From Clostridia bacterium (lineage in GTDB: Bacteria; Bacillota; Clostridia; TANB77; CAG-508): a stretch of DNA of 64,000 bases. Under the pieces are notes generated by a model that was given only the letters and a program-made list of their open reading frames with translations, did no database searches and was not told the origin of the DNA. The position numbers and the translations under genes are program-made. Below are positions 15,997-57,470 of the stretch, piece by piece. How positions within the stretch are numbered: the first letter of the stretch is position 1; each line of letters starts with the position of its first letter. The stretch is from positions 155,286 through 219,285 of the forward strand of contig JAEESU010000010.1 in NCBI GenBank assembly GCA_016290095.1, in the 5' to 3' direction.

Positions 15997-16086
15997 AATT
16001 TTATGTAAAGTATGGTAAAATAATAACATCCACTTTTGTGGAAATAAAATGACATCTGCGCATTCGCAGAAGAAAGCGAGGAGAGT

Positions 16087-16572
16087 ATGTCGGACATTGC
16101 CCGGTGGGAAGAATCTATGAGAGAAGAACTCATAGATCGCTTTAATGTGATATTCCCACAAGAACAGCTCAGGAAGCAACACTACGAAAGGGTAAGAGAA
16201 GGAGTTAATTCAGAAAGAGAAAAAGTTGAGGTACCAAGCAATCGAAAAACTACTTGCGAACAGGTTTGGGAGTTCTGTTTTAATAAGGCATTTTACCCGG
16301 AAACTTTTGAAGAACTGTACAAGCGAGTTACTGAAGAAGTGATTAGTGTCTTCGAGTACATGGAAGTCTCTCTTGACGAAGCAATTGAAATCCTGACCGA
16401 CTTAAGTTACGAGCATGAACCATCACCTGTAGGAAATTCTATCAGAGTACTCATCGATGAGATGCCAGATATCTTAATTCAGCAACTGATCGAGAGATAC
16501 AAAGAAATGCTGAACTACGATGATGGAATTTACACGGCACTTATCTGGATGCTAAACGACGAAGAAAGCTGA
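16087..16572 (+). CDS. Small cytoplasmic protein of unknown family, paralogue A of a tandem pair, on a GC-anomalous islet
   Basis: Local GC is about 43% against about 27% flanking. RBS AGGAG upstream. Shares 'Q.VWEFCF.KAFYPE' and a C-terminal 'DDGIYTALIWMLNDE' with the downstream paralogue. Confidence 0.6.
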   Translation: MSDIARWEESMREELIDRFNVIFPQEQLRKQHYERVREGVNSEREKVEVPSNRKTTCEQVWEFCFNKAFYPETFEELYKRVTEEVISVFEYMEVSLDEAIEILTDLSYEHEPSPVGNSIRVLIDEMPDILIQQLIERYKEMLNYDDGIYTALIWMLNDEES

Positions 16573-16581
16573 GGGTACAAA

Positions 16582-17142
16582 ATGAGTAACGACATCAATA
16601 ATCTTGTAATGCGGAGTCTAAATGGTAATAACGAATTGGCTGATAAGTTATTAGAAATTTTTCCGTTTGATGATATCAAGAAAGAACTTCATGACAAGAT
16701 CAAGGCAAAAACGAAGTCGGCCACTGAGAGCATTGAGGTTGATGAATTCAGACAGCAGACTACTCCCATGATCTGGGATTTCTGCTTTGAAAAAGTATTC
16801 TTCCATGAAGCAGTGAGAGAAGAATACCTCAACGCTTTTGAGGCAATCACTACGATGTTTAGAGATTATAAGTGCTCGCAAGAAAGAGCAATTAGTGTTC
16901 TGGATACAGTGTATAAAGTATCAGACAGGGAGAAAGGTGTTATTGCAGGATTATCGAGTGACCTTCCTTCTAATACCGATATCATGATGGTATATATGGT
17001 ACAATGCATTGTTTCCCGGATGGTGGAATTGCCTGACAGAGCAGTAAGCAGACTGATTGAACGATATATGGTGATAACTGAATCGTCAGATGGTTTCTAC
17101 AACGCAGTTCTTCGAATCGTAAACGAGAAGCGTGGAAAATGA
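16582..17142 (+). CDS. Small cytoplasmic protein of unknown family, paralogue B of the tandem pair
   Basis: 'MIWDFCFEKVFFHE' and 'SDGFYNAVLRIVNE' align with the upstream gene. 9-bp intergenic gap; GC-rich terminator after it. Confidence 0.6.
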   Translation: MSNDINNLVMRSLNGNNELADKLLEIFPFDDIKKELHDKIKAKTKSATESIEVDEFRQQTTPMIWDFCFEKVFFHEAVREEYLNAFEAITTMFRDYKCSQERAISVLDTVYKVSDREKGVIAGLSSDLPSNTDIMMVYMVQCIVSRMVELPDRAVSRLIERYMVITESSDGFYNAVLRIVNEKRGK

Positions 17143-17189
17143 CATATTCCAATCGACAATCAATTTGAGAAAATTCAATATTGATTGCA

Positions 17190-17228
17190 AAGGGAGGATG
17201 CTAGGCATCCTCCCTTTGTTATTGTATT
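17190..17228 (+). terminator. GC-rich rho-independent terminator closing the islet
   Basis: Stem aagggaggatgc / gcatcctccctt followed by a T-tract. Confidence 0.7.
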
Positions 17229-17271
17229 TTTGATATAGCTGTAATATAATATTAAATGATGAGGAGATATT

Positions 17272-18795
17272 ATGTACCAATTTTTGGATTTAAAAAAATT
17301 AATAGAGTGTTCAACAGAAAAATATAATAAAAAAATATTATATGAATTTTCAAATATTACTTATAATAAATTTTTAAAAGAAATTAATTATTTGGGAACT
17401 TCTTTATTAAACATGGGACTTAAAGGGAAAAGAATAGCTATTCTATCTGAAAATAGATATGAGTGGGAAATCTCTTTTTTTGCTATTGCTTGTGGAGTAG
17501 GGATTGTTGTTCCATTAGATAGAAGTTTACCCAAAGGAGAAATTGCAAGAATATTGAAAAGATCTAGAGTTGATTTAGTTTTCTCTTCTAAAGAATATGA
17601 GAAGTTATTAGAAGAAATAAAAATGGAAAACAACTGTTGCCTTTATAAAATTGTTTCTTTTGATTCATTGCAATACAAAAATTTATTATTAAAAGGTAAA
17701 AAATTAACAGAAAAAGGAGATAAAACATATATTTCCACAAAAATAAATAGTAATAAAATATGTGCTATTTTTTATACGTCTGGAACATCAGATAAATCAA
17801 AAGCTGTTATGCTTTCACACAAAAATGTCTGTACTAATGTTCAAAATGTAGCAAAAGTATTTGAATTAAATTCAAATGATAAAGTGTTATCAATATTACC
17901 ATTAAGTCATGTATTAGAAGGAATATTTTGCATGCTTCTATCAATATATAATGGAGCGACTAGAATTCATTGTAATAAAGTAGAAGATATAATGGAGTAT
18001 ATATTGAAGTATGAAATTACTTTTATGTGTGGAGTTCCATTTTTATTTGAGATTTTAAGTAAAGATTTAAGCATGATAAAAACACAAATTCCTAAAATTA
18101 ATATGTTTATGAGTGCAGGTGCATCATTAAATGAGAAAATAATTAAAAGGTATGAGAAAGCTGGTATAAAACTTGTACAAGGTTATGGAATGACTGAATC
18201 TGGACCAGTAATTACAATAGAAAATAAAGAAAATTGTAAGATAGGTTCTGTTGGAAAAAAGATTCCTAATATTCATTTGAAACTGTTAAAAAAAGATAAA
18301 GATGGTATAGGAGAAATTGCTGTTAAAGGAGAAAATATTTTTATAGGATTCTTTGAAAATGAAATTGCAACAAAGGAAATGTTAAAAAATGGATGGCTAT
18401 TAACAGGGGACTTAGGAAGAATAGATTCTGATAATTATTTATATATTGTTGGAAGATTAAAAAATGTAATTGTTTTAACAAACGGAAAGAAAGTTTATCC
18501 AGAAGAAATAGAATACTTAATTAATCAGATTGATGGCGTTAAAGAAAATCTGGTATATTGCATTTCTTATGGGCCAAGCGGATATATGATATGTACTGAT
18601 ATAGTATATGATAAAAATCATTTTAAAAATATTAAAGAAAAAGAGATAAAACAAATAATTAATCGAAAAATTGAATATATTAATGAAATACTACCAGGTT
18701 TTAAAAGAATTAGAAGAGTTAAGATATCTAATAAAGAGTTGGAAAAAACAAGTACAGGGAAAATTAAAAGAATTCAATATTTTGAGAAAAAATAG
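17272..18795 (+). CDS. AMP-dependent synthetase/ligase (acyl-CoA synthetase-like)
   Basis: AMP-binding motif 'YTSGTSDKSKAVMLSHKN', 'GYGMTESG' and a C-terminal 'TSTGKIKR'. Confidence 0.75.
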   Translation: MYQFLDLKKLIECSTEKYNKKILYEFSNITYNKFLKEINYLGTSLLNMGLKGKRIAILSENRYEWEISFFAIACGVGIVVPLDRSLPKGEIARILKRSRVDLVFSSKEYEKLLEEIKMENNCCLYKIVSFDSLQYKNLLLKGKKLTEKGDKTYISTKINSNKICAIFYTSGTSDKSKAVMLSHKNVCTNVQNVAKVFELNSNDKVLSILPLSHVLEGIFCMLLSIYNGATRIHCNKVEDIMEYILKYEITFMCGVPFLFEILSKDLSMIKTQIPKINMFMSAGASLNEKIIKRYEKAGIKLVQGYGMTESGPVITIENKENCKIGSVGKKIPNIHLKLLKKDKDGIGEIAVKGENIFIGFFENEIATKEMLKNGWLLTGDLGRIDSDNYLYIVGRLKNVIVLTNGKKVYPEEIEYLINQIDGVKENLVYCISYGPSGYMICTDIVYDKNHFKNIKEKEIKQIINRKIEYINEILPGFKRIRRVKISNKELEKTSTGKIKRIQYFEKK

Positions 18796-56464: not shown

Positions 56465-56496
56465 AATGCTAATTTAAATTAGCATTTTTTATTTTG
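56464..56496 (+). terminator. Rho-independent terminator after rlmH
   Basis: Stem aaatgctaatt / aattagcattt followed by a T-run. Confidence 0.65.
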
Positions 56497-56511
56497 AAAT
56501 TTTAGATCAAT

Positions 56512-56540
56512 TTGACATAATATTCGAAAAATATTATAAT
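56512..56540 (+). promoter_or_regulatory. Perfect-consensus sigma-A promoter (TTGACA-17-TATAAT) driving GC islet 3
   Basis: ttgaca at 56512-17, a 17-nt spacer, then tataat at 56535-40. It is followed by a short hairpin (gccagtaaatctggc) and a GGAGG RBS. Confidence 0.55.
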
Positions 56541-56590
56541 TAAAGTATGCCAGTAAATCTGGCAAATAATTTATTGGAGGTATAACCACC

Positions 56591-57403
56591 ATGACAATCC
56601 GGAAGAGTACACTGGTTCTAGTAGCTGTGATTCTGGCTATCGCCACATTCGCTTGCACTGCATGCGCATTGGCCGATGACTATGAATACAACTGCGTAAT
56701 TGTCGATTTTATCGACGCAGCAAACATTCGCGACACTGCAAACAAGAACAAAGTGCTGGGCTCTATTCCAGCAGGAACACCAATTTACGTTGTTGAACCT
56801 GGAACTTTCTTTTCTAAAGTCGAGTACGAAGGTTGCATTGTTTTGGTTTTCACTGAATATATCCAAGAGATTGAACCAGGAACTGTTTTCCATAAACCGA
56901 AAAAGGCTCCTGAAAAGCTTTACACACTTGAAGGCACTACTCCATATCGGGTAAAACTGAACATGGGAACGTGGATCAATGTGCGAAGGTCAAAGAGTCT
57001 TGATGCTGGTTCGTCTGGCCAGCTCTATCGTGGCGATTTCGTCTATGTTCGGAAGATCACATCTGACGGCTGGGCGACAATCATCTACAACAATCGTGCA
57101 CGGTATATTGAGAGCAAATGGCTTGAACTTGTGACTGATGAAATGGAAGTTCTCGAAACTCCGGTCGGAAGTTACAAACTGGTAAATCCCAGAAATGATG
57201 GAACGCACACTGTGTATCTGCGTAAAGAAGCATCGGTGTATGCTGATATCCGAACCAAAGTAACATTCGGTACTGTTGTTGAGGTCCTGGAGGACTATGG
57301 TGCATGGGCATTGGTAAACATTCCTTCGATTGAAAAACAAGGCTATATGATGACGTTCTACATGGAGCCTTACGAGGGAGAAGAGATCACTGCCAACAAT
57401 TGA
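56591..57403 (+). CDS. GC-anomalous (~46% GC) secreted protein with three bacterial SH3 (SH3b-like) repeats
   Basis: Signal peptide '...ACALA|DD'. Three repeats of the '.N(I/V)R......(V/L)G......V.V.E..G.WA.V' type (ANIRDT..., INVRRSK...DGWATI, VYLRKEA...YGAWALV). Own promoter, RBS and GC-rich terminator. Confidence 0.55.
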   Translation: MTIRKSTLVLVAVILAIATFACTACALADDYEYNCVIVDFIDAANIRDTANKNKVLGSIPAGTPIYVVEPGTFFSKVEYEGCIVLVFTEYIQEIEPGTVFHKPKKAPEKLYTLEGTTPYRVKLNMGTWINVRRSKSLDAGSSGQLYRGDFVYVRKITSDGWATIIYNNRARYIESKWLELVTDEMEVLETPVGSYKLVNPRNDGTHTVYLRKEASVYADIRTKVTFGTVVEVLEDYGAWALVNIPSIEKQGYMMTFYMEPYEGEEITANN

Positions 57404-57433
57404 ATACTCCAAGAAAACCACTGAAATATGTGG

Positions 57434-57470
57434 ATTCCGGGCTGCTTTGCGGTCCGGAATTTTTATATTT
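57434..57470 (+). terminator. GC-rich rho-independent terminator closing islet 3
   Basis: ttccgggctgctttgcggtccggaa followed by tttttatatttt. Confidence 0.65.

Follow-up and report, generated by a model that had tools for sequence, protein, structure and literature searches.

Segments of atypical G+C content (GC) in bacterial chromosomes are routinely taken as recent horizontal gene transfer (HGT), and in the amelioration framework of Lawrence and Ochman acquired genes of atypical GC or codon usage are said to converge on the composition of their host. Three short GC-rich segments (islets 1 to 3) in a 64,000-nucleotide (nt) stretch of a Clostridia genome (contig JAEESU010000010.1 of assembly GCA_016290095.1; hereafter the window) depart from this picture, since here atypical GC marks genes inherited by several species. 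The islets are orthologous and syntenic across relatives, they are protein-coding, and their composition has persisted over near-saturated synonymous divergence. Like HGT islets and ORFans, they are short deviant segments that vary between lineages, encode orphan proteins, and sit between housekeeping genes. Unlike them, they have no mobility genes, tRNA target, or repeats, are inherited across several species, and are not converging on the host despite nearly randomized host synonymous sites; they are GC-rich against the mutation bias. Among the features expected of recent HGT, deviant composition was found, whereas absence from close relatives, donor or mobile homologues, and amelioration were not.

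Several other described systems resemble the islets in part. Phage morons, reportedly described by Juhala et al. in 2000 as single genes of deviant GC with their own promoter and terminator between phage genes, share the promoter-gene-terminator cassette and the compositional step at its edges. The islets differ in lying between chromosomal housekeeping genes, with no surrounding prophage, no PHROG match for their proteins, and no homologue in phages or viral contigs; the only phage matches of the islet proteins are two weak ones to SH3. GC peaks in AT-rich genomes usually correspond to structured RNA genes, and RNA genes of the rnpB type likewise form sharp GC peaks with G/C conserved by selection on the transcript, but the islets are protein-coding, have no counterpart in Rfam, and fold no more stably than their composition accounts for. 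G+C has reportedly been found to be favored in bacterial genes (Raghavan, Kelkar and Ochman, in 2012). A genome-wide, modest selection or bias favoring G+C in bacteria was described by Hildebrand et al. 2010 (PMC2936529). The islets resemble that case in an apparent GC-to-AT mutation input (4 of 4 SNPs) and a fixed composition far GC-richer than mutation alone would give, whereas their effect would be gene-specific, very strong, and limited to a minority of small orphan units. To our knowledge a gene-specific, strong version has not been described so far, and a literature search for GC maintenance of this kind found no description. The AT-rich Salmonella pathogenicity islands bound by H-NS provide an example of long-lived deviant composition (PMC1550270; xenogeneic silencing reviewed in PMC8476142). 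They are comparable to the islets in being acquired DNA whose deviant composition lasts over long times and across species, but they are AT-rich, so that mutation bias helps and a silencer recognizes AT, while the islets deviate toward GC in a 26% GC genome. We know of no mechanism comparable to H-NS silencing for deviation in the GC direction.

The background GC of the window has a mean of 0.262 (standard deviation 0.029, maximum 0.34, in 239 windows of 500 nt). Against this background islet 1 (16028-17219, GC 0.399), islet 2 (52049-52737, GC 0.505), and islet 3 (56547-57462, GC 0.442) have z-scores of 4.7, 8.2, and 6.1, and no 300-nt window elsewhere in the 64 kb reached a GC of at least 0.40. 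A previous reading of this DNA from its letters alone (the sequence-only reading) had picked out the same three segments; that they are GC-richer was confirmed, while its values of 43, 52, and 46% are replaced by 40, 50.5, and 44% for the transcribed units. All three islets lie on the forward strand and each is self-contained, with a sigma-A-type promoter, a GGAGG-type ribosome-binding site (RBS), one or two open reading frames (ORFs), and a GC-rich terminator hairpin with a T-run (Table 1). The layout had been proposed as a promoter or RBS, one coding sequence (CDS), and a hairpin terminator, which fits except that islet 1 contains two paralogous CDSs. The GC-rich domain spans the predicted transcript, beginning at the predicted transcription start and stopping at the terminator. 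The untranslated regions (UTRs) of the islets have a GC of 0.36-0.46 compared with 0.227 in host intergenic DNA, and the islet promoters are AT-rich. The proposal that the segments lie in intergenic spacers without a recombinase, end repeats, or a tRNA also agrees with the scans: no recombinase, transposase, or integrase genes were found in the islets, terminal inverted or direct repeats were at chance level in the repeat scan, and the sole tRNA of the window (1260-1335) is about 15 kb from islet 1, the nearest islet. Neither attC sites nor vector, marker, or resistance genes were found in the islets (Pfam, NCBIfam, and PADLOC gave SH3_3 alone), nor are the islets absent from natural populations as an engineered insertion would be. 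Islets 1 to 3 have nothing in common beyond chance 9-11-mers. The islets are flanked by housekeeping genes: a DNA-alkylation repair gene, acyl-CoA ligase-like and TIGR00375/EndoQ-like genes, rlmH, and truB.

Judged from their sequences and those of their homologues, all four islet ORFs are real genes under purifying selection and members of tiny orphan families. Identity among orthologues is highest at codon position 2, lower at position 1, and far lower at position 3 in all four ORFs; this pattern, together with length-conserved homologues down to 38% identity, indicates coding sequence. The identities at positions 1, 2, and 3 are 0.84/0.89/0.46 for islet 2 against the relative's locus L083, and 0.81/0.82/0.64 for islet 1 CDS a against L095 (66% amino acid (aa) identity). 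The families contain 2-12 homologues each, and every homologue with an examined context lies in low-GC DNA. The islet 2 protein has 12 homologues (38-100% identity, all 178-197 aa), and a full HMMER profile scan placed about 27 clusters of its family among 1.84 billion representatives. Four homologues with 53-60% identity were found for the islet 3 protein and two only for islet 1b. No donor, phage, or plasmid homologues were found among 5.8 billion clustered proteins, the 1.84 billion representatives, viral contigs, phages, and plasmids, and PHROGs, PADLOC, and NCBIfam gave no functional assignment for the islet proteins.

Relatives were identified with XerD (54708-55601), which returned hundreds of matches, all from metagenome-assembled genomes (MAGs) of uncultured low-GC gut Clostridia (best match 89%), including Candidatus Scatovivens (classed under Clostridiaceae incertae sedis), Candidatus Merdicola, and Clostridium sp. 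CAG:273, CAG:508, and CAG:567. Loci of relatives are designated by L-numbers, with L103 being the NCBI MAG GCA_030523345.1. Look-ups of homologues led to contigs from independent studies, among which islets 2 and 3 occur at the window sites in the 17-kb locus L083, with the order clpX-rluX(-)-[190 aa]-endoQ-xerD-87aa-rlmH-[266 aa SH3]-truB. Islet 2 is at the window site in L102 and GCA_030523345.1, as rluX(-)-[189 aa]-endoQ-spoIIM, and islet 3 in L096, as spoIIM-xerD-rlmH-[260 aa]. The islet 1 gene pair is found in L095, as PAP2-DNA_alkylation-[161 aa][180 aa]-AMP-binding. In the four other species-level lineages, from independent studies, the orthologues have 53-80% aa identity and synonymous sites are saturated. 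Nucleotide identity between L083 and the window is 78-84% in host genes and islets alike, promoter hexamers and terminators are conserved across the islet-bearing species, and junctions are identical or conserved. For the window-L083, window-L096, and L083-L096 pairs the identities are 98/94/94% for xerD, 87/78/81% for rlmH, and 63/53/56% for islet 3; trees of xerD, rlmH, the 88-aa gene, and islet 3 are all ((window,L083),L096). For the window-L083, window-L102, and L083-L102 pairs they are 95/93/92% for endoQ and 80/65/61% for islet 2, and trees of endoQ, rluX, and islet 2 are all ((window,L083),L102). Islet 1 with its flanks is 99.87% identical in two independent metagenome assemblies, and two metagenome contigs contain CDS a unchanged. 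In seven of the closest species returned with XerD, which are more distant than the islet-bearing ones (range L003-L011), the rlmH-truB gap is only 8-94 bp and islet 3 is absent; since rlmH abuts truB there, the presence or absence of islet 3 is a true difference at that depth.

The GC-richness has persisted along with the genes. In every islet orthologue the GC at third codon positions (GC3) is 0.37-0.69, compared with 0.07-0.18 in neighboring host genes. The four bases are used in near-equal shares at third positions of the islets (A.25, C.2, G.2, T.3), and those of the host are skewed (A.475, C.05, G.075, T.40). GC at first and second positions (GC1, GC2) is raised as well, with GC2 at 0.28-0.39. 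At four-fold degenerate sites of host genes, the G/C-A/T discordance between the window and L083 has reached 0.88 of saturation, corresponding to a (u+v)T of about 2.1 and a per-lineage memory of about 0.35; for other species pairs the memory of the four-fold G/C-A/T state is 0.2-0.4 or less. Had the islets decayed passively under the host regime, the ancestral GC at four-fold sites (GC4) would have to exceed 1 in four of five comparisons: the two for islet 2 call for 1.42 and 1.31, that of islet 3 with L096 for 1.48, and that of the islet 2-like gene in a second clade (L087/L097) for 1.13. For islet 2, a decay model with the host matrix fits worse than a stationary model by 12.9 log-likelihood units (lnL), or 5.6 with a free rate. 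Four-fold sites with G/C in all three species number 9 of 43 in islet 2, far above retention at the host rate, and 14 of 67 sites in islet 1 have G/C in both species where about 6.6 are expected by chance and the host state is fully randomized. By parsimony, the window lineage gained G/C at seven four-fold sites of islet 2 and lost it at one, which is a net GC rise. Of the four within-species single-nucleotide polymorphisms (SNPs) found in homologues of islet 2, every one is a C>T or G>A change, which suggests that mutation in the islets is AT-biased like that of the rest of the genome, and a stable GC would then imply a fixation bias.

These observations are best accounted for, with somewhat better than even confidence, by old, vertically inherited accessory transcription units in which GC-richness is actively maintained. 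The islets would have entered, or arisen in, an ancestor of a small species group of about 26%-GC uncultured gut Clostridia of the Candidatus Scatovivens/Merdicola type. They would then have been inherited vertically at fixed intergenic sites, each with its own promoter, RBS, and terminator, and islets 1 and 3 with a 5' stem-loop as well. The predicted products are a pair of paralogous, acidic and helical proteins from islet 1, a multi-pass membrane protein from islet 2, and, from islet 3, a secreted protein of the SH3b cell-wall-binding type. The whole transcribed region would be at its own compositional equilibrium, with a GC3 of about 0.4-0.7 compared with about 0.1 in host genes. We infer that a fixation bias maintains the GC of the islets. 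This bias is most likely selection on the transcript, for example for generic mRNA stability or resistance to AU-directed RNases, and GC-biased repair or conversion may be the maintaining force instead. A transcript-level force is favored over selection at the codon level because the GC-rich domain covers the UTRs and stops at the promoter and the terminator.

A number of points weigh against active maintenance by such a force. Caution is called for mainly by the implied per-site bias, which at a 2Ns of about 2.5-3.5 (calculated from the host equilibrium and GC4) is large, and high for orphan genes. The islet CDSs gave no sign of a specific RNA structure, with fold z-scores of -2.2 and -1.5 compared with -1.7 and -2.2 for host mRNAs, so that the only argument for transcript-level selection is that the GC domain and the transcript coincide. 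Specific mRNA structure had been considered on account of whole-transcript z-scores of -4.35 and -3.25 and was rejected when these were traced to the 5' hairpins and the terminators. In these genomes high expression is not enough to raise GC3, as recA, spoVS, and clpX have a GC3 of 0.07-0.15. The comparison of islet 3 with L083 requires an ancestral GC4 of 0.92, and decay from an ancestral GC4 of 0.94 (lnL -231.9) fits almost as well as the stationary model (lnL -229.9). Although the evidence agrees across the four islet genes of the window and several other families, it comes from small numbers, with 27-86 four-fold sites per gene and 4 SNPs; the host rate from G/C to A/T was estimated from few G/C sites, and the GC3 census is limited to the window and the relatives' loci. 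There are only three taxa per islet, and tree congruence alone is weak evidence.

The alternative closest to the classical interpretation, old horizontal acquisitions from very GC-rich donors that ameliorate slowly with no maintaining force, is considered unlikely. Atypical composition and presence/absence among relatives are the classical HGT signature, islet 2 of L083 is less GC-rich than that of the window (GC3 0.49 compared with 0.69), and the near-equal fit of decay for islet 3 against L083 is in its favor. However, ancestral GC4 values above 1 are also required for other islet families, the GC2 values and the amino acid make-up are unlike those of a donor with 65-70% GC, and islets of differing ages and sites are all near a GC3 of 0.4-0.5, in addition to the retained four-fold sites of islet 2. 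Repeated re-import, in which each species acquired or replaced its copy on its own from an unsampled pool of ordinary GC (a bacterial clade, phage, or plasmid) at insertion hot spots, would account both for codon usage of ordinary GC and for the saturation of synonymous divergence. The islet 2 family does occur at two loci in two clades (rluX|endoQ and SBP_bac_5|spoVS), and the endoQ-xerD-rlmH neighborhood is variable among relatives. Such re-import is nevertheless a distinctly poor candidate: the protein, viral, phage, and plasmid searches contained no GC-matched or mobile homologue, the distances between islets agree with those between host genes, species share junctions, promoters, and terminators in identical or conserved form, and neither repeats nor an integrase are present that would make insertion site-specific.

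Composition would also be maintained if the rare G/C-ending codons were themselves functional, through slow or conditional translation (tRNAs, starvation) and selection on codons. Host third positions are 87% A/T, which makes most islet codons rare, and strong promoters might need a translational throttle, but codon selection does not explain the GC-rich UTRs, and GC1 and GC2 are raised too; little probability is given to this mechanism. The sequence-only reading had suggested separate insertions from different donors, through natural transformation and illegitimate recombination or through deliberate insertion. Taken as three recent events, such insertions are favored by the sharp compositional boundaries, the self-contained units, and the lack of mobility genes. 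The same-site orthologues in L083, L095, L096, and L102, with their saturated synonymous sites, and the islet 1 copies in two unrelated metagenome assemblies exclude recent insertion, different recent donors, and engineering, and we regard this origin as very improbable. Differing GC had been taken to mean different donors, but islet 2 orthologues alone have a GC of 52, 44.5, about 50, and 42-43%, a spread equal to that between the islets. Relatives carrying the segments, an outcome that the sequence-only reading had itself listed as counting against it, were found for islets 2 and 3 (L083), islet 2 (L102), islet 3 (L096), and islet 1 (L095). Its interpretation is partly supported overall: the segments are foreign-looking in composition, self-contained, and intergenic, without mobility genes or repeats, and they are insertions relative to distant relatives. 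That the islets are GC-rich structured noncoding RNA genes or assembly chimeras with spurious ORFs is hardly credible. The corresponding GC peak upstream of endoQ in relatives is RNase P RNA (247-279 bits), and islet 2 of the window has long ORFs on both strands; against this, no Rfam family matched the islets at the gathering threshold or at E up to 10, the codon-position pattern and the length-conserved homologues indicate proteins, the antisense ORFs are not conserved, and junctions are identical in independent assemblies.

A broader claim was also considered. When 1.36 Mb of loci from relatives were scanned, more small ORFs rich in GC (GC3 0.33-0.63) came to light, mostly without a Pfam match (Table 1), several of them at variable sites next to rnpB or just after xerD. 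Among other GC-rich orphan groups, L080/L082, L013/L014/L018, and L034/L035 would need an ancestral GC4 above 1 (1.17-1.51 in most), and the pair L045/L061 would need 0.74. A lineage-wide class of small orphan units, with the transcribed region held at a separate, near-uniform composition by gene-specific fixation bias against mutation pressure, is proposed tentatively, at somewhat less than even odds. The gene-specific bias, as selection on the transcript or biased repair, could give a stable "second compositional equilibrium" within one genome, which, if true, is not predicted by the amelioration paradigm. If the maintenance is real, the islets are a natural experiment on selection or biased repair acting on bacterial G+C, in which islets and host genes of one genome can be contrasted with mutation rate, population size, and ecology in common. 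They are a cautionary case for annotation and engineering-detection pipelines, and they define three tiny protein families confined to abundant uncultured animal-gut Clostridia.

Table 1. Positions of the predicted islet features in the window and of GC-rich genes in the loci of relatives.
Feature	Sequence	Position	Strand	Description
Islet 1 promoter	Window	15993-16021	+	Sigma-A-type TTGAAA-17-TAAAAT, extended -10 TG; 10/12 match, promoter scan
Islet 1 5'-terminal stem-loop	Window	16029-16042	+	UCCAC-UUUU-GUGGA, at about +2 of predicted transcript
Islet 1 CDS a	Window	16087-16572	+	161 aa, acidic, helical orphan protein; GC 41%, GC3 0.42
Islet 1 CDS b	Window	16582-17142	+	186 aa; GC 39%, GC3 0.41
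Islet 1 intrinsic terminator	Window	17187-17219	+	15-bp stem, 8 GC pairs, 100% complementary inverted repeat
Islet 2 promoter	Window	52014-52042	+	TTGATT-17-TATAAT with TG; promoter scan
Islet 2 CDS	Window	52114-52692	+	192 aa multi-pass membrane protein; GC 52%, GC3 0.69, third-position A 0.06
Islet 2 terminator	Window	52698-52737	+	Inverted repeat, 18-nt arms, 94%; alignment across three species
Islet 3 promoter	Window	56512-56540	+	TTGACA-17-TATAAT, 12/12 match; promoter scan; conserved in L083, L096
Islet 3 5'-UTR stem-loop	Window	56548-56564	+	Compensatory changes in L083, L096
Islet 3 CDS	Window	56591-57403	+	270 aa secreted protein, signal peptide, SH3b repeats; GC 45%, GC3 0.44
Islet 3 intrinsic terminator	Window	57432-57462	+	14-bp stem, 7 GC pairs; terminator scan
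rnpB	L003	6138-6490		Class A RNase P RNA
rnpB	L004	7378-7727		Class A RNase P RNA
rnpB	L005	7494-7844		Class A RNase P RNA
rnpB	L011	7533-7883		Class A RNase P RNA
rnpB	L012	4492-4837		Class A RNase P RNA
rnpB	L014	7306-7658		Class A RNase P RNA
rnpB	L018	6903-7254		Class A RNase P RNA
~105-aa membrane protein	L013	3821-4153	-	Just after xerD
~105-aa membrane protein	L014	11061-11381	-	Just after xerD
~105-aa membrane protein	L018	11000-11311	-	Just after xerD
162-aa protein	L080 and L082	About 8620-9110	-	
~110-aa family	L037, L045, L061			
Single GC-rich ORF	L036	5079-5564		
Single GC-rich ORF	L066	574-1164	-	
Single GC-rich ORF	L066	17453-18010	-	
Single GC-rich ORF	L072	11365-11856		
Single GC-rich ORF	L082	6881-7555		
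NUDIX protein	L012	4954-6033		Beside rnpB

In islet 1, a second 5' hairpin is located at 16055-16070, and the region 16028-16086 folds with -15.4 kcal/mol (z = -2.4). CDS b is a paralogue of CDS a, with 29% identity and the W-[ED]-F-C-F and LIERY motifs in both, and CDS a had no Pfam, PHROG, NCBIfam, or PADLOC match. The gene at 15316-15996, between the DNA-alkylation repair gene and islet 1, encodes a 226-aa multi-pass membrane protein, is of native GC, lacks a Pfam or NCBIfam match, and is absent from the orthologous site of L095.

The promoter of islet 2 is unchanged in L083 and L102 at its -35 and extended -10 elements, and the motifs KGIIYxEEQ, SLHFRLGRW, and WGVWNIPYDLTH are invariant in the protein family. 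The AlphaFold2 model is of a helical membrane protein with a beta-hairpin (pLDDT 70), for which no match was found in the PDB. The lower stem of the terminator covaries in the three species (CACCAT/ATGGTG, TGCCGT/ACGGCA, and TACCGT/GCGGTA). Its 16-nt apex, ATCGATGTGAATCGAG, is invariant in the window, L083 (about 3360-3400), and L102 (about 2385-2420), a conservation that exceeds the needs of a plain terminator. In another clade the islet 2 family is present at a second locus, SBP_bac_5(-)|gene(+)|spoVS(-), with the same cassette layout and a GC3 of 0.40-0.47. Islet 2 of the window contains no TTA, CTA, or TCA codons and only 6% A at third positions, which leaves a complete 210-aa antisense ORF (52057-52689, reverse strand). 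This ORF is not conserved in any islet 2 orthologue, where the frame has 3-7 stops, and antisense or dual coding was rejected for that reason.

Seven relatives have rnpB (class A, 247-279 bits) 160-3200 bp upstream of the EndoQ-like gene, where the window has islet 2; this region served as a control for a GC peak kept by selection. Searches of the window and L083 for RNase P RNA gave no match, and the gap between rluX and islet 2, about 180 bp in L083 and about 150 bp in L102, is too short for rnpB. Islet 2 as a counterpart of rnpB was dropped, since the upstream genes differ (clpX-rluX here), which indicates a rearrangement breakpoint in synteny; rnpB must be elsewhere in the genome. Between rluX and islet 2 the window contains a 5.5-kb block of native GC (46500-51990) that L083 and L102 lack at this position. 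Encoded in the block are an AMP-binding enzyme, an MBOAT acyltransferase, a decarboxylase/racemase-like protein of the pyridoxal phosphate type, and a GDSL/DltD-like protein of 315 aa, so that it resembles a dlt-like cell-envelope acylation operon, a second and compositionally silent indel beside islet 2.

The predicted islet 3 protein has the SH3_3 repeats and the secretion signal expected of an SH3b cell-wall-binding protein. Pfam SH3_3 matched two stretches (E = 3.5e-14), and the sequence matches in the PDB were 2kt8, 2kyb, and 2kq8, which are SH3 domains of surface-protein and cell-wall-hydrolase entries. By inspection, the N-terminal hydrophobic signal ends in ALA-DD, and no catalytic domain was detected in the protein. 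The 5' hairpin of islet 3 has fold z-scores of -2.2 in the window, -1.5 in L083, and -3.0 in L096. An exact 13-nt direct repeat, GAAAAATATTATA, is present on either side of islet 3, at 56526-56538 and 57485-57497. Its copies sit within the islet 3 and truB promoters and it is not conserved in L083, so that it was dropped as a target-site duplication and is probably a promoter-like coincidence.

The gene spoIIM lies between the EndoQ-like gene and xerD in the window (54020-54628), L096, L102, and more distant relatives. It appears to be missing in L083, where 237 bp separate the EndoQ-like gene from xerD (L083 4662-4899). The MAGs of L102, L103 (GCA_030523345.1), and L003 are recorded as "Lachnospiraceae bacterium" yet have the gene order of low-GC (about 27-29%) Clostridia, and their family label looks wrong.

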